Positions 1 through 34,417 of a stretch of 59,914 bases of DNA are shown here, piece after piece. The notes beneath the pieces were generated by a model. That model was not told the DNA's origin and did not search any database. It was given only the letters and a program-made list of their open reading frames with translations. Source of the DNA: Leucoraja erinacea (lineage: Eukaryota). Both the position numbers and the translations under genes were made by a program. Where the stretch lies: assembly GCF_028641065.1 (NCBI RefSeq), contig NW_026576313.1, positions 62,001-121,914 of the forward strand, read 5' to 3'. Each line of letters opens with the position of its first letter. The first letter of the stretch is position 1.

Positions 1-189
1 ATCTCTGATGATCACTATAAATGGAAACACCCTATGAAACCAGTTTAATCAGCCATCTTTCATATTGAACAGGCCACGCCTGTCATCATTTCGTGTCTGC
101 CCTGAACGGCAACTCTGGCCCGGTTACCGATAAGTCTCACATGTCCCAAGCCAACTCTTGCCATAATTCTGACCCTGCCTTGAAATAGA

Positions 190-1100
190 TTAATTAAGCA
201 GCCCTATTACAAGGCGCTGCTGGCGCGGCCTCTCCCATAGGCCGACACTGCCATAGACTCGGCATCCCCATTAAGCAGCCGTGTTACAAGGCGCTGCTGG
301 CGCGGGCTCTTCCATATGCCCAGCACTGCCATACGCTCGGCATCCCCTTTAAACAGCCCTGTCCAAGGCGCAGCTGGCGCGGGCTTTCCCATAGTCACGC
401 GCTGCCACAACTCTTGCTGTTGGAGTGTATCTAGATGGAGCCTCCTCTCCATTAGGGGCTCCATCCTGGCCAACCTCACAAATGTTCTCATTACCGGAAG
501 GGAACCCTCCCGGCACCAGGGCTGGCCATTTTGGTCGGTTTACCCCATTTCTTGGGAACCTCTGCGGTCTAGGCACCGCATTGCTGCTGGATTTCCCTTC
601 CCCGGGAATCCAAACGTCCGTATGTATTACCGGAAGGGAGAAAAACCCTACCGGCACCAGGGCTGACCGTTGCGGTCCATTTAACCCCTATCCTGGGGTC
701 CCCTGCGACCCTAGAGCTGCATTACTGCTGGATTTCCCCTTCCCGGGAACCCCAGCATCTACACCTATATTGGGTGTAAAACTCTCCCGATACCCGGTCT
801 GCTGGCTGTCCCCTCCCCGGGAACACCAGCATCTATATTCATATTGGAGGGAAACCCTCCCGGCACCCGGTGTGCTGGCTGTCCCCTCCCCGGGAACCCC
901 AGCATCTATATTCATATTGGGGGTAAAACCCTCCCGATACCCGGTGTGCTGGAGGTCCCCTCCCCGGGAACCCCAGCATCTATATTCATATTGGGGGTAA
1001 ACCCTTCCCGATACCCGGTCTGCTGGCTGTGCCCTCCCCGGGAACCCCAGCGTCTACATGCATATCGGACGGAAACCTTCCCGGCATCCGGAGCGCCTGA
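190..1100 (+). pseudogene. Probable decayed C2H2 zinc-finger array, now GC-rich tandem repeats of ~77-78 bp (194-410) and ~74 bp (740-1090)
   Basis: Repeat units translate to linker/finger-like strings: HIGGKPSRHPVCWL, GEKPYRHQG*, KPSRYPVCWR, MHIGRKPSRHPER (cf. HTGEKPYxCxxCGK) and CWRGLSHRPTL / SWRGLSHSHAL (cf. CGRGFSxxxxL). Periods are not 84 bp and the frames shift. Confidence 0.45.
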
Positions 1101-1399
1101 AAGTCACTGGCCACATTGTCAACGACCGACCTCGCGAAACCCGACATTCCCCAGCTATCCACTTCCGCGGCGAGAACCGGGGTTACCCCTCAGCCCATAG
1201 CTGGTTCCCCCGTCGGTCCTCGCGAATCATCCGGCAGGAAACCTCTGGAACAAAGAAACAAACCAGGTAAGAAATGCAAACTTACAGCAAAGACTGCAGA
1301 ATATATTTCTCGGCATTGTAATGCACCAGTGCCAGAGACAAAGTCCAGTGTGTACAATGGGGATGAGGTGAACCCTAGCATAAGGGAGGACTGTTCAGA

Positions 1400-1770
1400 A
1401 ACCTGATAGCATATGGGAGCAAACAGTTACTGAGTCTGGTGGTACACGTTTTGAAGCGTACGTACCTTCTGCTGGATGGAAGCAGGAAGAAGAAGGAATG
1501 ACCTGAGCGGGACGAATCTTTGATTATGTTGCCTGCTTTCCTGAACCTGTTGAAACACAGATGGAGTCAATGGTGGGGAATCATGTTTGTGTGATCGATT
1601 GTGCTACATCTCCACCTCTCTGCAATTTCTAGCGGTCTTGGGCAGAACTCTTTCCAAACGAAGTTGTGATGCAACCTGTCAGTATGCGTTCTATGGTACA
1701 TTTGTACAAGTTTGTAAGGGACATTGGAGACATGCCGCATTTTCTCAGTCTCCTGAGGCAGTTGAGGAAC
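1400..1770 (-). mobile_element. Degenerate Rex1/Babar-type LINE 3' fragment
   Basis: Minus-strand LRRLRKCGMSPMSLTNLYKCTIERILTGCIT resembles the RT C-terminal region of the Rex1 copy at 47260-47560 (FLRR..NFYRCTIESILTNCIT). Confidence 0.75.
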
Positions 1771-2549
1771 CAGAAGCTCTCAACCTTTTTCCACGTCAGC
1801 ACCATTGAGCAAATATAAATAGTATATTTATGGGTTAAGCATTTGATATTCAACACCAGTAATACGTGGATGGATTGGATAATCTGATTTTTGGGCTGGC
1901 TTGAGGGAGAACCCATTAGTTTATTTATAGCCTGATCACCTTGAAATGAGACCCTGATTTAAGCTGGTTGATGGAGACCATGATGTATTCCCTCAGTAAT
2001 AATATTCTGTTAATGCAGCATTCCCTCAATATTGGCAACAATCCTCGGAGAGTGTAGCAATCCCACACGGTGCAACAGCCTTGATGTATTTCCCATCTGC
2101 ATTGCCTTAACCTTCAGACTGACCCGTTGGCTCTGTAGCATTGCCCGTCTGACAATGCACTCCTTCCTCTGTTCGTCATGTACGACACTGCAGACGTCAG
2201 AGTTCTACCCTTCTGATACAGCTTTAATGTTACATCCGCAACTGCAAAGTGTCCTCAAAGCTTCCCCCCTCAACACTTGAGGTTAGTCCATGCCCTCAGT
2301 ATATTGACCATGGGCCATAGAGTATTTGAGTCACACATCATGGAAACTGGCCCTTCTGCTCATTGAATCCACACTGGTCATCAAATGTGCCAAGATGGAG
2401 TCACAGCAAACTGCATTTGCTGCCAATCTGAATTAAAAACAAACAGGACTCATCGGGTCAGACAGCATTATGTGGAAAAATGGACAGAAAACATATGAAA
2501 TCTGGACCATTTGGAGTAGGGTGGAGAAAGCTGGAAAAGAAAAGTAGTC

Positions 2550-2643
2550 TGTGTAGGATAGTGTTAATGTGCGGAGATCACTGGTCGATGCGGACTCGGT
2601 GGGCCGAAGGGCCTCTTTCCGCACTGCATCTCTAAACTAAACC
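2550..2643 (+). mobile_element. 3' half of HE1-like SINE
   Basis: GGACTCGGTGGGCCGAAGGGCCT...CATCTCTAAACTAAAC tail, same as the full copy at 11913-12195. Confidence 0.7.
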
Positions 2644-2773
2644 TGCTCCTGCGCTGTTCAGCTCTATGTTGTGTTCTGTTATGCCTGTTTGTACCATGCT
2701 GAGAACTGATTTGTTAATTGCCTCTCCCCTCCACCTCCCTCCCTCCAACCCAAATCCTCCACCCTTACCTCAG

Positions 2774-3064
2774 CCCCCGCTCTTTTCTTTGTCCAGGATT
2801 TCTGCGGCTGTGAAGTGGACAGTGACAATTCCACTGATGGGTTTGTCAGACTGGGTTATGATGGGGAGGATGCCTGTGCTTTCGACAAGGACATAATGCG
2901 CTGGATTGCACTATGGCCAGATTTCCAGGTGCTAGTAGATCGGTGGAATGTCAACACCGTCATAAACAAGTATTTCAAAGATCTCCTGGAGAAGGACTGA
3001 GTGAAGTGGCTGCTGATATATCTGGAGTGTGGACAAGAAGCACCACATAGGAGCGGCACAGGAC
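2774..3064 (+). pseudogene. MHC class I-like alpha2 domain exon (nonclassical-looking), inactivated
   Basis: Acceptor ttacctcag at 2773, phase 1. Translation xPALFFVQDFCGCEVDSDNSTDGFVRLGYDGEDACAFDKDIMRWIALWPDFQVLVDRWNVNTVINKYFKDLLEKD*VKWLLIYLECGQE matches alpha2 motifs QxxxGCE, GYDGED, W147 and WLxxYL. TGA at 2998-3000 occupies the second disulfide Cys position. Donor ambiguous (GC at 3056 or GT at 3065). Confidence 0.85.
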
Positions 3065-3152
3065 GTAATCATTCTGACTGTTGGGCCCGGGGATATCCTC
3101 TAGATCGATCAGGTGGGAAATCCCGCACTTCAGGCTGTCACTTGAGCAATTG

Positions 3153-4215
3153 TTTAGTTTAGTTTATAGATACAGTTCGGAAACCGGCCCTTTGGACCAC
3201 CGAGACCGCATCGACCAGCGGTGCCCGTACACTAACGCTATCCTACACACACTGGGAACAGTTTGCATTTATACCAACCCAAATAACCTACAAATGTGTA
3301 CGTCTTTCGAGTGTGAGGACACACTCACACTTGGGAAAGGGGGAGATGCAGCGAGACCTGGGTGTCATGGTACACCAGTCATTGAAGGTAGGCATGCAGG
3401 TGCAGCAGGCAGTAAAGAAAGCGAATGGCATGTTGGCTTTCATAGCAAGAGGATTTGAGTATAGGAGCAGGGAGGTTCTACTGCAGTTGTATAGGGTCTT
3501 GGTGAGACCACACCTGGAGTATTGCGTGCAGTTTTGGTCTCCAAATCTGAGGAAGGACATTATTGCCATAGAGGGAGTGCAGAGAAGGTTCACCAGACTG
3601 ATTCCTGGGATGTCAGGACTGTCTTATGAAGAAAGACTGGATAGACTTGGTTTATACTCTCTAGAGTTTAGGAGATTGAGAGGGGATCTTATAAAAACTT
3701 ACAAAATTCTTAAGGGGTTGGACAGGCTAGATGCAGGAAGATTGTTTCCGATGTTGGGGAAGTCCAGGACAAGGGGTCACAGCTTAAGGATAAGGGGGAC
3801 ATCCTTTAAAACAGAGATGAGGAGAACTTTTTTCACACAGAGAGTGGTGAATCTCTGGAACTCTCTGCCACAGAGGGTAGTTGAGGCCAGTTCATTGGCT
3901 ATATTTAAGAGGGAGTTAGATGTGGCCCTTGTGGCCAAGGGGATCAGAGGGTATGGAGAAAAGGCAGGTACGGGATACTGAGTTGGATGATCAGCCATGA
4001 TCATATTAAATGGCGGTGCAGGCTCGAAGGGCCGAATGGCCTACTCCTGCACCTAATTTCTATGTTTCTATGTTTCTATGTGAGGGGAAACCGAAGATCT
4101 CGGATAACACCCACGCAGATCACAGGGTGAACGTACAAATTCTGTAAAGACAAGCACCCGTAGTTAGTAACAAACCCAGGTCTCTGGCGCTGTAAGGCAG
4201 TAGCTCGGCCACTTC
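3153..4215 (-). mobile_element. HE1-like V-SINE split by a CR1 insertion
   Basis: SINE tail and 3' part at 3153-3318; SINE core and tRNA-like head resume at 4079-4215. TGTGAGG is duplicated on both sides of the CR1. Confidence 0.8.
3331..4080 (+). mobile_element. 5'-truncated CR1/HER1-type LINE (family A, (TTTCTATG)n tail)
   Basis: Open ORF2 C-terminus (RDLGV..VRPHLEYCVQFWSP..RRLRGDLI..TRGH..FFTQRVVNLWNSLP), 3' UTR GAAGGGCCGAATGGCCTACTCCTGC, 8-nt tail repeats. Confidence 0.95.
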
Positions 4216-5005
4216 TCCACCCTGTTCTTGGACGAGGGTATCAGTAAATTGTCTGGCAACGTGCCTTTTAGATGGAGCCAGTGGGTAGGAAGTGCAAGTG
4301 AAATATAAATATAAATATTGCACCAGTGTCCTCTATCCACGGGCATATAGATATTCAGGAAATGGAGAGATATGTATCTTGTTCTTATGTTTAGCACTGA
4401 CCTTGTGCCTGAAGGGTCTGTTGCTGTGCTGATTAGAAACCCAATCAGATTCTCTATTTGCCTCTATAACAGCTTAGGATGGTTACATCCTATTTCCAAC
4501 TGTTCTCTGGTTGAAGAACATCTTCGTCCCATTCCCTCTTGGAATATTTAGTGTTATTATTCAGCAGAGATTCATGAACAAATAGAAGCAATCAAATCTA
4601 CAGTATCAATCCCAGTGGTGAGTTATACTCCTCCATAGGACCCTGCATTCCACTTCCATCTGTGTTGTCAGATAAAGTGGAGCTAAGATAAAGAACATGT
4701 CAGTTGTATTAAACTAAATGTTTTGTTGTTTTGCCAGAAAAGATAGAACAGATGATGATGGTTTACACCGAAGATACACACAACATATTGGAGTAATTCG
4801 GTGGGTCAGGTAGCACCTCTGGGCATTCCGTCGCTACAGAGATTCTGCCTCATCTGCTGAGTTACTGCATCATTTTGTGTCTGGGCTGAAAATTTGTTCA
4901 GCTAGAGAAAAATTCTGATTGGGAAAGAAGTAAGTTGGAATGATCTTATAATTGAAGGCTTTTTCTTCGTGTCTTCACTGATTCTGACGCTTCTTACACT
5001 TGCAG

Positions 5006-5289
5006 AAAACCCTGAGGTATGTATTGTGATTAAACGTGATGGGTCGCAATCACTGAGACTCTCCTGCCTTGTCACAGGCTTCTACCCACAGGCCATCGAT
5101 GTAATGTGGCTGAGAGATGGTGAAGGGATCCACGAGTCTGAATCCAGTGATTTGTTACCCAATTGGGATGGGACTTACCAGCTGAAGAATACAATTGAAA
5201 TGAGTAGAGAAGATGTGGCAAAATCCCCCTGTTACATCGAACATACAACTCTGCAGGGAGTCAATGTTCCACAAGTGGCACTTCAATGA
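5006..5289 (+). pseudogene. MHC class I-like alpha3 (C1-set Ig) exon
   Basis: Acceptor cacttgcag at 5005, phase 1 (compatible with the alpha2 exon). ENPEV..LSCLVTGFYPQAIDVMWLRDG..LLPNWDGTYQL..CYIEHTTL carries the CxxxGFYP, W, PNxDGTYQ and CxxxH motifs. No clear donor or TM exon found. Confidence 0.88.
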
Positions 5290-5430
5290 GTCTGATCACT
5301 TGAAACCATAAACCTCCTGGACTGAGATCTCCAGCGCAGTAAGGCAGCAGCTCCAGCGCTACGCCACAGTGCCACCCATTATTAATTTGTGGTTATCTTA
5401 TTGCCCAGAAATATTGATATTCAATGGGAT

Positions 5431-5722
5431 GTAGTTTTAGTTTCAAGATACAATGCAGAATCAGGTCCTTTGGCCCACCAAGTCCGCGTCAACCAGCGAT
5501 CCGTGCACATTTACATTATCCTACATATTAGGGACAATTTACAATTTTACCGAAACCAATTAACCTAGAAACCTGTGCGTCTTTGGAATGTGGGGGAGAA
5601 AAAAGCACCCGGAAAAACTCACGCCATCATGGGGAGAAGGTACAAACTCCGTACAGACAGCACCCGTAGTCAGGATTGAACCCAGGGTTCTGGCGCTGTG
5701 ATGCAGCAAATCTGTCGCTGTG
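5431..5722 (-). mobile_element. HE1-like tRNA-derived V-SINE
   Basis: Reverse complement has a B box (GGTTCAATCC), the GTACGGAGTTTGTAC core and a LINE-like tail. Confidence 0.8.
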
Positions 5723-8100: not shown

Positions 8101-8482
8101 TGACAGCATTGACTGGAAAGCTAGTATGAAACAGCCGGTAATAATTCAGGTAGAAAACATTTACTATCCGATCCTTGCCATCATCGGCATTCCTGGTAAG
8201 CCGCTTATTATCACCTGTTAATCCTTTCGTTGTGTAGTTCTGTGTTGTTAAGTGGAAGTTGTTATTATGGTATATGGACACATCGATCTGTATTGTAGTA
8301 AATACCTACTATGGTATGTGTGCTGAAGAAACGCAACAATGTCATTGTCCTAACAGGGACACATGACAATAAACTCACTTGAACTTGAACTTGAAGTGTA
8401 TACTTAATTGTCTGTTTGATTTAGTATTGGCAGTCAAATACTGATCGACATGTAACGAGCGAAAATGGCGTACCTACTGTTT

Positions 8483-12195: not shown

Positions 12196-14580
12196 GCTTC
12201 CTGCAAGACCAATAACGGGTAGTAAAGTCATTTTAATTTCGTCTTTTCTACAGCTAACGTGGTGGCAATCGTCATTCTCGTCCGAGGAAAGTGCGGTCTC
12301 TCCAAATGTATCACCCTTCACCTGGTATATATGGCCGTGGTTGATTTAATGGTTCTGATCTTCGAGGTAATTCTCTACGAGATTAAAGATAGCTATTTCC
12401 CCAATTAATTTCTGAACTTAACTCCTGTTTGTAGCGTCAACTTGACCATGATTTTTATGTCCATTGATTGCTCTGTCTGGCTAACGGTAACTTTCACCTT
12501 TGATCGATTTGTTGCTATTTGTTGTCCAAAGTTACGAGGAAGGTATTGCACTGGGAAAACTGCGAGTTTGGTGATAGCAGTGGTGTGTTCCCTGAGTGTT
12601 ATTGAAAATATCCCAATCTATTATATCTACACACCACGAGAAATCATTAACAACGTGGCTTGGTCATGTGGCGTAACCCCAGACTTCTACACCTCACCGT
12701 TACTGGTAGCATTTTGGTCGTTCGAAACTATTTTAACCCCATTTATACCATTCCCACTGATCATGCTCCTCAACGCCCTGACAATCAGACACATTATACA
12801 CGCCAACAGAGTGAGGAGCGGTCTCCGAGCGAACAAGAAGGAGGAGAGCAGCGCAGATCAGGAGGTGGATAATAGAAGGAAGTCCATCATTCTATTGCTG
12901 GCCGTATCCGGCAGCTTCGTGCTACTGTGGATGGTAACATTCGTGTGCTTCATCAGTGTACGATTTATAGACGTGCAGCTTTTAGCAACAGATTACGACG
13001 ACCCATTTACCGTGGCAGAACAGTCCGGATACATGCTGAGGTGTCTGAGTGCTTGCACCAACACGTTTATTTACGCCGTGTCACAGACGAAATTCAGGGA
13101 AGAATTAAAAACCCTGTTTAGGGGTCCTTGCGGGTTCTTGTCTAATTCACTAAAGCACTTTTAATTTATCAGTGAAACCACAATTCATTTCAAAGTGACG
13201 TTATATTCGTGTTATTTTATTATATCCTACATCCCCATCCTCCTTCCTTTTCACCAGCTGGTCAAGGTCTTACTGTAATTCATGATCCCATTTCTACTGT
13301 GTGGGTTAACACGTCGTTTAACTTCATTGTGTATATGTATAAGGAGCTGATAGTTGAATATTGTATTCAGCATTGTTGCCAATAATGTGTCCTCCTGATC
13401 TGTTCGACACTTAAAGCCGATTTAATGGAAATTCGCTGTGCACTACACTGTGCATGTAAGCGCCCTTCCCTCCAAAAATCTGCCACCCTCTTTTAGCCCA
13501 TCTACACTAATCTTAGTTTCCCATTTTGGTGGTTCACACAATTAACCGGTGATAGGGTCGTAAAGTCATACATTTCTGTATGCCTTTACGACCCTTTCAT
13601 TTGTGTCGTCTATGGAAATCCCACAAAGATTACTTTCATGAGAGGGGAACTGATTTACATCAGACATTCGGTTCTTCCAAACATTGTTCCGAATTTCTCT
13701 GACTCGCTGTATTATTTAGACATTCTAGTCAGCGGATGTGTCCAATGCCTTGAGATGTAGGAGGCTCTCCTTCTTTGTCTTTGGTGGACCTTTCTTTTTT
13801 CCTTGAAGATGAAGCTCATACTCTCATGGTGGAAGCATGCATTTTTATAATAATTTTATATGTCAGAACAACAGGTGATTCTATGTCAAACTAGCTATAT
13901 CCTTTATTAACATGATGGCGTAGTTTGCAGTCAAATAGTCATACAATTCGTCCCAACTGTCTACAACCCGCCAATATGTCCCAGCTATATTATTCCCAGG
14001 GCGGAGTTAGATGAAGAGAGGCCCTAAGCTATTTCACTTGTGACTCACGACTAGAGGACCATGACTACCCAACAGTGACAGTGTAACCCTTTTAGATCCT
14101 ACTGTATGTAGTCATTAAACAGTTGGCTTTAAAATACATATTTTATTCACCGCGGAGCAGGCGATACCTTACCTGGATCGCTGTTTGAAGCTCTGGAGTG
14201 TTGGGCCTGCTGCTTCAACATCATGGAGCTGTGGTTTGCGGAGCTCCCAGCCTCGGGCCGCGCTGATTTCAACATCGTGGAGCCCTGGGATACCTTTGCC
14301 GAGGGCCGCTAGCGTGATTCTCCACCCAGCTAAGCCAGGAGGCGAGTTCTCCGGTAGGAAGTGGCCGATTCGGAAGTTCAAGCCGCTGAAAATGTTCTCC
14401 TGTTCCGTTGTCGGATGGTGACCCCAAATTTCATTGTACCAATTGGTGCATGTGACAATAAGTGTCACTTGAATTGAATGTGGAATATTAATAAATAAAT
14501 AAATTGCAAATACACTAAGAGCTATAATGTTTTTTTCTCGCCTTGTTCATAGCAAAATCATCCAGAGGTTCACCAAGGAG

Positions 14581-15502
14581 ATGTCAGGCAAGCTGATTCA
14601 GTGTGGTGCTTGCAGTATGTGGGAGGTCAAGGACATTGCTGGTGCCTCTGGCTGCTACAAATATGTTAAGTGCATCCAGGTACAACTCCTGGAGGACCGT
14701 GTTGGGAAATTGGAGAAGCAAGTGGATGACCTCAGGTTCGTCCGAGATTCTGAGTCGTTCCTCGACAAATCCTACAGTAAGATTGTTTCGCCTAAGGTAC
14801 TGGAAGAGAGAAGGTGGGTGACGGTGAGAAAGGGAGGGAAGCATGGAATGCAAACGTCCCCGGGTCTTGTACCTCTTGTGAATAGGTTAACCCACTTAGA
14901 AACTGTCGGGTCAGAAGACGTTATTACACTGAGCGGCGGACTGGCTTGCGAAGCAAAAAGGGCTGTTGAGCCAAAACCAAAGAGGCCAATGTCAGGCAAC
15001 GCCATTGTAGTGGGAGACTCCATTGTGAGAGGTACGGACAGTGGTTTATGCGGCAATAGACGGGATTCGAGGATGGTGTGCTACCTTCCTGGTGCCAGGA
15101 TTCAGGGTGTCACGGACAGAGTGCAGAAAATCCTCAAGGGCGAATGTGAACAGCCTGAGGTGGTAGTGCATGTCGGCACAAACGATGTCGGAAAGAAGGT
15201 GATGACTATGCTGCAGCGTGACATCAGAGAGCTCGGAAAAATGCTGAAAAGCAGGACCTCCAGTGTTGTTATCTCCGGTTTGCTTCCAGTCCCTCGTGCT
15301 GGCGAGAGCAGGAACAGGGAGATACGGAACCTAAAGGTGTGGCTGAGGAACTGGTGCACGGGGCAGGGAGTTAGATGCTTAGATCACTGGGATCTGTTTT
15401 GGAGTAAGGGGGAACTGTACAAAAGGTACGGATTGAATCTTCACAGGTGGGGGACAAGCATTCTGGCAGCCGTGTTTGCCATTGCTACACGGGTGATATT
15501 AA
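14581..15502 (+). CDS. CR1 ORF1p: zinc finger/leucine zipper plus SGNH esterase domain (last codons displaced to ~18510-18519 by an insertion)
   Basis: CGAC..YVKC finger remnant, heptad LEDRVGKLEKQVDDL, SGNH blocks VVGDSIVRG, LPGA and HVGTND; catalytic DGLH decayed to YGLN. Confidence 0.85.
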
Positions 15503-18500
15503 CCATATAACCATATAACCATATAACAATTACAGCACGGAAACAGGCCACCTCGACCCTTCTAGTCCGTGCCGAACACGTATTCCCCCCTAGTCCCATA
15601 TACCTGCGCTCAGACCATAACCCTCCATTCCTTACCCGTCCATATTACAATTTATATTTAAATGATAAAAACGAACCTGCCTCCACCACCTTCACTGGAA
15701 GCTCATTCCACACAGCCACCACTCTTTGAGTAAAGAAGTTCCCCCTCAGGCAACCCCTAAACTTCTGTCCCTTAATTCTCAAGTCATGTCCCCTTGTTTG
15801 AATCTTCCCTACTCTCAGTGGGAAAAGCTTATCCACGTCAACTCTGTATATCCCTCTAATCATTTTAAAGACCTCTATCAAGTACCCCTTCAACCTTCTG
15901 CGCTCAAAGAATAAAGACATAACTTGTTCAACCTTTCTCTGTAACTTAGTTGCTGAAACCCAGGCAGCATTCTAGTAAATCTCCTCTGTACTCTCTCTAT
16001 TTTGTTGACATCCTTCCTATAATTAGGCGACCAAAATTGTACACCATACTCCAGAATTGGCCTTACATCCCAATTTCTATTTTCAATGCTCAGATTAATA
16101 AAGGCCAGCACACCAAAAGCTTTCTTTACCACCCTATCTACATGAGATTCCACTTTTAGGGAACTGTGCACAGTTATTCCCAGATCCCTCTGTTCACCTG
16201 CATTCTTCAATTCCCTATCATTTACCTTGTACGTCCTCTTTTGATTTGGTCTGCCAAGATGTCGCACCTCACACTTATCAGCATTAAACTCCATCTGCCA
16301 TCTTTCAGCCCACTCTTCCAACTGGCATAAATCTCTCTATAGTCTTTGAAAATCTACTTCATTATCCACAACCCCACCTATCTTAGTATCATCTGCATAC
16401 TTACGAATCAAATTTACCACACCATCATCTAGATCATTCATGTACATGACAAACAACAGTGGACCCAAAAGAGTTCCTGTGGCACCTCACCAGTCACTGG
16501 CCGCCAACCTGACAAACAACCATCCGCCATTACGCTCTGGCATCTCCCATTCAGCCCCTGTTGAATCCATCCTGCTACTCCACCATTAATACCCAACAAT
16601 TGAACCTTCTTAACCAACCTTGCATGAGGAAGCTTGTCAAAGGCCTTACTGAAGTCCATATATACAACATCCACTGCTTTACCCTCATCAATTTCCCGAG
16701 TAACCTCTTCAAAAAATTCAAGAAGATTAGTCAAACATGACCTTCCAGGCACAAATCCATGTTGACTGTTCCTAATCAGACCCTGTTTATCCAGATGCTT
16801 ATATATATTATCTCTAAGTATCCTTTCCATTAATTTGCCCACCACTGACGTCAAACTAACAGGTCTATAAATGCTAGGTTTACTTTAGACCCCTTTTTAA
16901 ACAATGGAACAACATGCGCAGTACGCCAATCCTATGGCACTATTCCCGTTTCTAATGACATTTGAAATATTTCTGTCATAGCCCCTGCTATTTCTACACT
17001 AACTTCCCTCAATGTCCTAGGGAATATCCTGTCCGGACCTGGAGACTTATCCACTTTTATATTTCTCAAAATGTCAGTACTTCCTCTTCTTTGATCCTCA
17101 TAGTTTCCATAGCTACTCTACTTGTTTCCCTTACCTCACATAATCCAATGTCCTTCTCCTTGGTGAATACCGAAGAAAATAAATTGTTCAATATCTCCCC
17201 CATCTCTTTTGGCTCTGCAGATAGTTGTCCACTCTGACTCTCTAATGGACCAACTTCATCCCTCGTTATCCTTTTGCTATTAATATAGCTGTAGAAACCC
17301 TTTGGATTTACTTTCACCTTACTTGCCAAGGCAATCTTCTTTTAGCTTTTCTAATTTCTTTCTTAAGATTCTTTTTACATTCTTTATACTTCTCAAACAC
17401 CTCATTTACTCCATGCTGCCTATAATTACTGTAGATCTCTCTCTTTTTCCGAACCAAGTATCCGATTTCCCTTGAAAACCATGGCTCTTTCCAATTTTTA
17501 CTATTTCCTTTCAACCGAAAAGGGACATACGATTCTGTACTCTTAAAATTTCACCTTTATATGTCTTCCATTTCTCTGCCCCATCTTTCCCATGAAACAA
17601 ACGGTCTCAATTTACTCCTTTTAAATCCTTTCGCATCTCCTCAAAGTTAGCCTTTCTCCAAACAAAAATCTCAACCCTAGGTCCAGTTCTGACCCTCGCC
17701 ATAATTATATTGAAACTAATGGTATTGTGATCACTGGTTCCGAACTGTTACCCAACGCATACCTCTGCCACCTGACCCATCTCATTTCCTAACAGGAGAT
17801 ACAGCACCGCCCCTTCTCTAGTAGGTATTTCTATGTATTGCTGCAAAAAACTATCCTGCACACATTTTACAACTTCCAACCCATGTAGCCCATTTACAGA
17901 ATGTGTTTCCCAGTCTATGTGTGGAAAATTGAAATCTCCCAAAATCACTACCTTGTGCTTACTACTAATATCTGCAATCTCCTTACATATTTGCTTTTCC
18001 AATTGTCGCTCCCCATTTGGCGGTCTATAATGCACCCGTGTAAGTGTTGCTACCCCTTTTCTATTCCTCAGTTCCACCCAAATAGCCTCCCTAGACGAGT
18101 CCTCTCATCTATCCTGCCTAAGCACTGCTGTAATATCTTCCCCTGATAAGCAATGCAACATCCCCACCTCTTGCCCCTCCAATTCTATCACACCTGAAGC
18201 AACGAAATCCTGCAATATTTTGTTTCCAATCACAGCCCTCCTGCAACCATGTTTCACTGATCGCCACAACTTCATACTTCCAGGTGTCAATCCAGGCTCT
18301 AAGTTCATCCACCTTTCTTACAATGCTCCTAGCATTAAAATATACACAATTAAGAAACCCACCCTCTCTTATTCTCTCTTTATTGACTTCTCTCTCTTCT
18401 CTCTCTCCCCTATATTTTTGTGCCAGTGCTGAAGAGAATCTAGACTAGAGCCTCCGAAATTCGAGTCCCCCCAACCATACTAGTTAAAGTCTCCCAGTAG

Positions 18501-31590: not shown

Positions 31591-32305
31591 CGACATGATC
31601 TCCTACATCGAACTGCGGCGTATTTGTCACATAACTGCCGTCTTTGTTCTGAGCATTTCGAACTTAGCCAGTTTTCCAACAAGCAGACCAAGAACAGGCT
31701 AGTTTGGGATGCAGTTCCAATGCTCTTTGACATCCCTAACCCTCCGAAACAACTGTATACTCAACGCAGGATACTTGAGAGGAACAATGAGAACCTTCCA
31801 TCTTCACCGAAGCCTTCAAAGCAGCAAAGGGGCAAGTAATTTTTAAATAAACATTTTAATTTCTCTCTTTTGCAAAATCTATCACAATGTAATATCCTAA
31901 CTGATACAATTGTCAGTGGCACAATATGAAATATCATGTATGGCACTAACATTTTCATGTGTGAGATCTTTCAGAACATTCCAGAGCTAACGCCGGATCG
32001 CCGCTTGCCAACCACGTGACTCGGTGGCATGCGAACACCAGCCGTGGTGAGAGGAGCGGTCAAAGAGGGACCCTGACTGGGACCGGAGCAGCGGACAGCC
32101 GCACTGAGCAATGCATCCTGGGACAAAGTTTTGCGCAAATCACAATTTTACTTACAATTTTTGTAGCATGAATTAGGTATCACACATTGATTTAAAATGA
32201 GAATTACCAGTAGATGCAAATTTATTTACATGTATATGCATATGCTAAATCCATTTCATTTGTATACCTCTTTTAAGCCCTTACTAATTTTTTTTCCCTT
32301 GGCAG

Positions 32306-34417
32306 TGTCACACAACACACAGACCGACCATTCTTACTGCTTAGCTGCGGACCAGATTCGTGAGAATGCTATTCAATTCACACCAGTTGTAAATCACAGA
32401 AGAGCTCTGAAGAAGGAAAGACAGCGTACTTTCCGCCTCAAGAAAAGGGTGCAACGGATGAAGAAATCAGCGAAAAGGGGAGCTACAGAAAGCTTGATCA
32501 GTTTAGATTTTTTACAAGAGCCAGTAAAGTCTTTTTTTGAATCACAATTGCGGAATGCGCCAGGGCATAGAGGTGCAAGAGGAAGACGATGGGATTATGC
32601 AGACAAGATACTTGCCTTGTCCCTCTGCCACAAGAGTCCCAACACATATCAGTTGTACCAGCGCATATTCACACTTCCATCAATTTCATCGCTGCATAGA
32701 TGGTTGTGTAATGTCGAAGTAAGACCAGGATTTCCCACTAAGATCTTCGCGCTTTGGAAGGACAGGGTAGCAGGCATGTCAGAGACTGATAGAGTCTGCA
32801 CAGTCTCCTTTGATGAAATGAGTCTACGTACAGGCCTCTCGTACAATATTACAGAAGATTCAGTTGAAGGTTTCGAGGACTTTGGATCGCTAGAGAAGAC
32901 GTCACGGCCTGCCAACCATGCTCTTGTTTTCATGATTAGAGGCCTGTTTGGGAAATGGAAACAACATGTGGGTTACTTTCTGTCGCGAGACTGCACAAGG
33001 GCGGACAAACTGCAAGCATTACTCAATGAATGCTTGCATAAGGTTAAGGCAATTGGACTACAGCCTAAGGCCGTGGTTTGTGACCAAGGCCCAAGCAATG
33101 TTCGGTTGTACAACAACTTGGGTGTGACAGAAAAACATCCTTTCTTCTTCCACGGGGAAGCCAAGATCTTTTGCCTGCATGACCCGCCACACTTGCTAAA
33201 AAACACCAGAACAAATTTGGAGAAGTATGTTTTTGAGGTAACAGAAGAGGATGGCGGAAAGAAACATATCAAGTGGGCACATATTCGCGCATTTTATGAA
33301 AAGGATTCACAGTTTCCCGTTAGGGAAGGCCATAAACTGACCAGAGCCCACATTGCTCTGAACAGCTTCTCCAAATGTAGAGTCAACAAAGCAGCGCAGG
33401 TGCTCAGTCATTCGGTGTCAGCAGGCGTGTTAACCTATTCAACTATGGGACAGTTGACTGGGGGTGCTGCTTATACTGCGGATTTCATTGCAATGATAGA
33501 TGGACTGTTTGAAGCATTTAACGGCAGGAGTCTCAAGACAATAAAAAAAATTGAGGAGGCCCATGTCTGAAAAATCGGCGCATTGGTCATTCTTTGAATC
33601 ATGCTTGCCTGTACTGCAAAGCTTAAAAGTGCTTGGAGTGAAAAATGTATTGATTGTCAAAGGATGGCAGCTTGCAATTTCTTGCATTACACAGCTGTGG
33701 CAGCACATAAAGGAAAATACAGACGCTTGTTTCATGCTCACATCCAGGGTTAATCAGGATGTCGTTGAGAATTTATTCGCGACCATTCGGCGAAAGGGCG
33801 GATTCCGAGAAAACCCATCAGCAAAGGAATTTCGCTGTGCTTTAAGAATGGTCATGGACTGATAAAGCCATCTCTAAGTGCAAACTGTAAACCTGACGAT
33901 GCTAAATTTCTCTTATCACTGCAAACACTGACAAAAGACAGTCAATAAACCATCTCCATCTATCTCCCATCACAATAGGGAACAACAGAACACTGTATTT
34001 TGCAGTACGTCACTTGACCTCCCGGAAGAGAACACACTGGCTTACATCGCAGGCCACATCTGCCGTAGATTCCTCACCTCTCATGAACTGATCTCAAAAT
34101 GTCACATATGCAGAGAAGTTCTGCTACGACCTGATATAGCCTTAGTTGATCCTACCCTCATATTCATCCACCATAAGGCATATGACACATCGACATCAGA
34201 CTTCGGCTCCTTGATGGTGCCTTCAGAACAGTTTCTCGCATTCTGTCAGGTGTGCGAGAAAGTGTTCCGCACAGAATTCGACAATGCTAACATGACCAGG
34301 AACAACATCTCCAATCTAATAAATACAACGATACACAATACTAAGGAATACAAGACATGAACTTATGCTGCCTGAGTCAAGGCGCAAATTATTGTAGCTA
34401 TCTTCGTCAGTGTCCGC
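32306..34417 (+). pseudogene. P-element transposase main exon (frameshift at the A-run ~33543-33550, stop/frameshift ~33860)
   Basis: ORFs 32197-33570 and 33551-33862 carry the RNase H-fold D/D/H/E motifs; downstream IKPSLSANC and LAYIAGHIC continue in shifted frames. Confidence 0.9.

Follow-up and report, generated by a model that had tools for sequence, protein, structure and literature searches.

Does the MHC class I-like sequence near the start of a 59,914-nucleotide stretch of Leucoraja erinacea DNA (the window) belong to a working gene, to a decayed classical gene, or to a lineage of its own? An earlier note, made from the letters of the window, had seen in it a once-complete nonclassical gene that was remodelled in its groove and pseudogenised where it stands. 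The explanation that we regard as probable overall is a broken duplicate of the alpha2 and alpha3 exons of a conserved class Ib gene, sister to UGA and a likely presenter of lipid or other hydrophobic ligands. The fragment itself is without function, and the interest lies in the conserved lineage behind it.

The class I fragment in the window

Three alpha2 exons of the lineage type are found in the skate genome: the one in the window (positions 62001-121914 of contig C1132), one on contig C1147 (99% identical, with the same stop) and one on contig C1104 (89%), which has an open frame and belongs to the gene that we call the parent. The features of the window locus are the following.

1..1285, no strand assigned: dispersed repeat, with 40 further copies scored at 80-89% similarity
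1283..5705, + strand: duplicated block, colinear with C1104:111713-102143 (82-88% identity to the parent)
2774..3055, + strand: alpha2 exon, in phase 1, with its AG acceptor intact (Pfam MHC_I match, E 1.9e-10)
2998..3000, + strand: codon of Cys164, TGA here and TGT in the parent (comparison with the parent, short-read contig)
3056..3057, + strand: ancestral donor site of alpha2, GC here versus GT in the parent (parent comparison, short-read contigs)
3319..4078, no strand assigned: repeat insertion, missing at the matching place in C1147 and C1104 (contig alignment)
5006..5272, + strand: alpha3 (C1-set) exon of the fragment, phase 1 (C1-set match, E 2.8e-13)
5273..5289, + strand: former intron, read through to a TGA at 5287-5289 and non-exonic in the parent (parent comparison)

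The two exons are thus phase-compatible, as the earlier note had stated, and the start of the alpha2 exon is indeed longer by two residues, a property common to the parent. Alpha2 and alpha3 are the only class I domains of the window copy. Searches of C1132 over its full 121,914 bases and of the whole of C1147 detected neither an alpha1 nor a membrane exon, and genome-wide searches gave one alpha1 and one membrane exon of the lineage type, both on C1104. The duplicated block begins in the intron, 177 bases past the alpha1 donor, and ends inside the intron after alpha3; the dispersed repeat stops exactly where homology to the parent starts, that is, at the place where alpha1 would be expected. 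A fragment of two exons, not a whole gene remodelled in place, is what the contig contains. The insertion at 3319..4078 gave no match in a Pfam search; we take it to be LINE-like.

In addition to the stop at Cys164 and the altered alpha2 donor, the alpha3 exon has an in-frame 3-base deletion after 5250, and its donor is lost through a 5-base deletion after 5272, so that 5273-5289 is read-through into the intron. The pseudogene status claimed for the locus is borne out by the stop, the two lost donors and the missing alpha1 and membrane exons. The stop is also present in the reads: a short-read contig (run X1, possibly the assembly's own sample) crosses 2998-3000 with 0 differences, and a second contig is of the parent type with TGT. 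Of what a functional gene needs, the locus has no alpha1 exon, no open alpha2, no intact donors and no transmembrane exon. The window copy is unable to encode a complete class I chain, and the locus is almost certainly a dead partial duplicate consisting of alpha2 and alpha3.

The TGA at a cysteine codon and an in-phase GT at 3065, which differs from the ancestral alpha2 donor, could be taken to mean that a classical class I gene died and then decayed, or that the gene still functions, the stop being a sequencing error or a selenocysteine codon. We give this reading hardly any credence, as alpha1, the transmembrane exon and both donors are gone, the stop occurs in short-read contigs from two organisms, and the changes at the peptide anchors (see below) are lineage-wide. 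The classical-gene reading is also ruled out by the alpha2 and alpha1-alpha2 trees.

Contrary to the expectation that annotation would miss the locus, NCBI has a model for it (XP_055486496.1, 263 aa, garbled) as well as one for the parent. Exon 1 of the garbled model is provided by the element at 1-1285, which is GC-rich, contains internal tandem repeats of 77 and 74 bases, ends sharply at 1285 and has at least 40 other copies. The model also chooses a second acceptor-like AG within the alpha2 exon (2790-2797), which does not fit the phase of a class I alpha1.

C1147 and C1132 have about 12.5 kb in common at 98.5% identity, which fits either a second locus or the other haplotype. Within these 12.5 kb the window carries a two-part GPR139-like 7TM gene (8126-8212 and ~12247-13128, + strand) with an in-frame stop that is missing in the matching stretch of C1147. 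Elsewhere in the window there is an open frame of 459 aa (32191-33567, + strand) with P-element-type transposase domains (PF21787, PF21788), and one of 335 aa (14503-15507, + strand) with a GDSL esterase-like domain, typical of LINE ORF1. The GPR139-like gene has further copies on C1132, C1147 and C732; genes of this kind also occur in the sawfish MHC-Ib region tabulated in PMC10751288.

The parent gene and the probable order of decay

The earlier note had proposed intact paralogues elsewhere, and an open-framed one is the parent on C1104: it comprises alpha1, alpha2, alpha3 and membrane exons, all open, and is annotated by NCBI as 'partial' (XP_055486430.1). With alpha1/alpha2 domains, a C1-set alpha3 and a transmembrane segment in four exons, and with the predicted fold of its Heptranchias orthologue, it is an MHC class I heavy chain. 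The skate UGA gene follows it on the same strand, 42 kb downstream. For the leader exon, a pattern scan over 15 kb upstream yielded one unconvincing candidate. The alpha2 and alpha3 bins of the parent were without RNA depth in three runs of unstated tissue, of which about 1-5% was sampled, so that the RNA is uninformative either way. The alpha2 donor of the parent (G000:C1104:109170) is a weak GTACAC, and the NCBI model reads through it, adding 13 codons. The skate has two UGA copies (G000:C1104:57869-3098 and G000:C732:140944-103624), whose proteins are 95-98% alike; genome searches gave no new-lineage neighbour for the copy on C732, which has a classical-like alpha1 about 74 kb upstream.

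The substitutions that separate the two genes fall mainly on the window copy. Its tip in the alpha2 tree measures 0.14 versus 0.009 for the parent, and it bears 10 of the 12 alpha2 amino-acid differences, including G97D, and 9 of the 14 scored differences in alpha3; dN/dS between the two is 0.69. According to short-read contigs, the duplicate of organism B has both lesions, stop and GC donor, while that of organism D has kept TGT and has the GC donor; organism C shows a parent-type contig only. Because the duplicate of organism D already has the altered donor and still lacks the stop, the data suggest that the alpha2 donor was lost before the stop arose. The contig depth of the fragment relative to the parent is ~1.2x in run X1, ~3 in X3 and ~2 in X9, values that are not a copy number. 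We propose that a partial segmental duplication in skates would have given rise to the fragment, that decay followed, and that no working protein would have come from the copy once alpha1 was lost.

An apparently unnamed lineage next to UGA

Orthologues of the parent were found in at least 15 species (9 of them sharks and 6 rays), as a single cluster per species except for Pristiophorus, which has two records. Sequence and profile searches returned no orthologue from chimaeras or bony fish, which is no proof of absence, and a profile search of 50% representatives added no lineage member among the best 150. All members are gene models. Several have no start, and what appears as their tail may be intron sequence read through for want of splicing.

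Phylogenetic trees were calculated from hand-picked rows out of 240 proteins (42 for alpha1-alpha2, 36 for alpha3), with the chimaeric models P0008 and P0090 excluded from the alpha2 tree. The group labels UEA-like, UDA-like and classical-like were assigned by eye against the queries in the supplement of PMC10751288; UFA and UCA were kept outside the trees and compared by eye, UFA also by fold. The lineage forms a clade of its own in the alpha1-alpha2 (100/100), alpha2 (100/98) and alpha3 (99/98) trees. The window copy itself falls outside the classical-like genes and its anchor changes are lineage-wide, so that neither a place within the classical lineage nor substitutions private to this copy, both raised earlier as tests, were seen, and the nonclassical, specialised character first suspected is supported.

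In the midpoint-rooted alpha1-alpha2 tree the lineage is sister to UGA (100/98), in support of a common origin of their groove domains; the relation is unresolved in the alpha2-only tree (91/73, with a long branch) and in alpha3, where a polytomy is obtained. UGA is also the nearest named lineage, at 42%, 38% and 42% identity across the three domains, and no close match to any named lineage emerged. Both genes are present in 5 species, with 36-46% identity per domain, and therefore their split predates that of sharks and rays. We consider it very likely that this is a distinct lineage, sister to UGA. Three Callorhinchus proteins (P0036, P0045, P0051), which resemble the chimaera 'UGA' of the supplement, branch outside the pair formed by UGA and the new lineage (92/86) and may be co-orthologous to both.

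Has the lineage been described before? The named class I lineages of cartilaginous fish run from UAA to UGA, and this gene is absent from the 26 class I queries that the supplement of PMC10751288 (2023) lists. In the sawfish table there, a single gene bears the same NCBI name; it is flagged MHC-Ib and lies in the b2m-col11a2 cluster after the GPR139-like array, with 42 kb between it and the next class I gene. Judging from name and position it would be XP_051899694.1. The lineage was thus probably listed in that supplement as a generic MHC-Ib gene. Literature searches, whose reach ended short of the UDA/UEA papers, a 2021 thesis and the 9CH4/8GM8 structure work, gave no name for it. It is apparently unnamed so far, and the thesis and the structure paper may cover it.

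Predicted structure and anatomy of the groove

The predicted structure of the Heptranchias orthologue has a class I fold with a pLDDT of 86.8 (118-row alignment, which superseded a 21-row alignment giving a poor fold with pLDDT 68 and rmsd ~6). Its best fold match is UGA (9CH4; Z 28.9, rmsd 1.8 over 268 aligned residues, 41% identity), followed by chicken CD1-1 (Z 26.5), with ZAG and HFE third and fifth, human CD1d at Z 24.0 and UFA (8GM8) at Z 22.6; such scores are close among class I-like proteins and do not show function. By sequence, too, the best solved relative is UGA (E 2.9e-60; the entry 9CH4, from nurse shark, is titled as shark nonclassical class I UGA), and the next matches are MR1 chains (from 4.9e-47).

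Residues were numbered by eye from an alignment of HLA-A2 and UGA given in the supplement of PMC10751288. The classical (UAA) anchor set of Y7, Y59, R84, T143, K146, W147, Y159 and Y171 is largely replaced: F7, H59, Q84, A123, L143, R146 and L159 stand in place of peptide anchors in all 11 tabulated orthologues, Y171 is kept in 11/11 and W147 in 8/11. The altered A123, L143, R146 and L159 and the retained W147 and Y171 that had been read from the window copy are all there. Because they are fixed in 11/11 orthologues, the anchor changes are ancestral in the lineage and no product of decay.

The extra cysteines described for the window copy are likewise all present in it, but the groove had been called cysteine-rich, which overstates the case: C124 is confined to the 6 rays, C174 occurs in 12 of 16 rows, and C99 alone is lineage-wide, being found in all 15 rows that cover the position and fixed in 11/11 tabulated orthologues, versus F in 8/8 UGA rows. 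No conserved partner cysteine for C99 exists in alpha1 of the lineage rows. Together with G97 and A123 it gives the groove floor small residues.

Over 35 groove positions, a list based on class I structures, the lineage has the most hydrophobic groove among the six groups compared (mean hydropathy 1.30, with 2 charged residues); UGA reaches 0.52, and the other four lie between -0.51 and 0.05 (UEA-like 0.05, classical-like -0.06, UDA-like -0.51). The parent's lineage accordingly combines a hydrophobic groove with absent peptide anchors, as do UGA and CD1-like molecules. In 15/15 lineage rows the alpha2 loop carries a glycan site, and the site near N86 is gone. A tyrosine motif near the membrane is found in the tail of 0/15 lineage models versus 5/8 UGA, with the caveat that a short final exon may be missing from the modelled tails.

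Possible ligands

Could the intact protein hold a lipid? On account of the hydrophobicity of the groove and the kinship with UGA, it probably binds a lipid-type or other hydrophobic ligand, as far as sequence can tell. The protein would pair with beta2-microglobulin, and the lipid would sit in a cavity over G97, C99 and A123, as reported for UGA. Since the tail tyrosine motif of UGA is missing in all lineage models, loading and action might, by a weaker inference, take place outside endosomes, along the secretory path or at the cell surface. For UGA, lipid binding is given as a personal communication in PMC12562908.

In its fullest form, which we put forward tentatively and at slightly less than even chances, the proposal is a second, unnamed CD1-like specialist older than the shark-ray split, with the most hydrophobic groove, an invariant free cysteine on the floor, a relocated glycan and no endosomal signal. 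Such a molecule and UGA would share out the lipid antigens between them, either by compartment or by chemistry. That C99 plays a chemical role is a weaker part of the proposal. By analogy, an invariant and apparently unpaired Cys99 might covalently trap a small reactive metabolite or an acyl chain, as MR1 Lys43 sets a precedent for covalent capture. The residue's fixation in the lineage, the missing alpha1 partner and the rank of MR1 as next-best sequence match after UGA point this way; on the other side, a small residue may merely enlarge the cavity, the MR1 matches are distant, and the MR1-like row groups elsewhere in the alpha1-alpha2 tree. We regard covalent capture as unlikely.

Rays and sharks are 68% and 73% identical in the two groove domains and 57% in alpha3. 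This higher conservation of the groove domains, along with the fold ranks of ZAG and HFE, would also suit a molecule that binds no antigen and acts through a conserved outer surface like HFE, ZAG or FcRn. Such a role seems quite improbable to us: G97, C99 and A123 suggest an open cavity in the floor, the lineage is kin to UGA, and the ZAG and HFE fold scores are tied with those of other class I proteins.

A hydrophobic ligand remains the preferred reading, and it would have consequences beyond the skate. Through shark UFA and UGA, the presentation of lipids in the manner of CD1 has recently been traced to the oldest jawed vertebrates. If our reading is true, a UGA sister with another groove floor and tail means that lipid presenters diversified before the shark-ray split; the mammalian CD1 isoforms are a later diversification. 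The 15 orthologues provide a target list, and C99 offers a single-residue test of the lineage.

Comparison with known class I systems

The W-category, with its class II-like two-chain organisation, is unlike the parent, whose product is a class I heavy chain of three domains plus a transmembrane segment. UEA/UCA, UDA and UAA/UBA have the same class I exon plan as the lineage, and the likely orthologue in sawfish is flanked by b2m/brd2 on one side and col11a2/rxrb on the other, which is the Ib cluster known from descriptions of UDA and UEA. However, their identity to the lineage is at most 36% when lineage members and short partial matches are set aside. UDA-like and classical-like rows retain the peptide anchors that the lineage is without. 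Membership in UEA/UCA is argued against by the separate clade of the UEA-like rows (dogfish UCA being outside the trees). The lineage keeps C101-C164; UEA-like rows lack C101.

UGA is the closest system. It is an adjacent gene on the same strand, of low copy like the lineage, and has in common with it the loss of Y123 and Y159 as well as G97, M152, Y155, F156, L159 and D163. Might the lineage then simply be a second UGA gene, known to those who defined UGA and with the same lipid-presenting role? The shared G97, M152, F156, L159 and D163 would agree with that, as would the term 'single- or low-copy' applied to UFA and UGA in PMC12562908 and the close linkage of the two genes in skate, which the like-named, MHC-Ib-flagged sawfish gene matches in spacing. 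The 38-42% identity per domain is low for such a case, the alpha3 stem of the lineage (0.44) equals in length the stems of UGA (0.53), UDA-like (0.54) and UEA-like (0.38) genes, and the lineage, missing from the 26 queries of the 2023 supplement, forms a separate starred clade in three trees and is not nested inside UGA. It has its own F7, H59, N77, I80, C99, L143, R146 and W167, with fixed differences from UGA at 7 positions (7, 59, 77, 80, 99, 143 and 146); UGA's C31 is missing in 10/11 lineage rows. Compared with UGA, the groove is also more hydrophobic, the glycan site is in the alpha2 loop and no longer near N86, and the models have no tail tyrosine motif. We hold a second UGA gene to be the less probable case, with a separate sister lineage as the preferred reading.

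UFA (PDB 8GM8) and CD1 are, like the lineage, nonclassical molecules with a hydrophobic groove and a class I fold. In the fold alignment their identity to the lineage is 29% for UFA, which is clearly unlike it by eye, and 21-27% for CD1; in contrast to both, the lineage has mostly retained W147, W167 and Y171.
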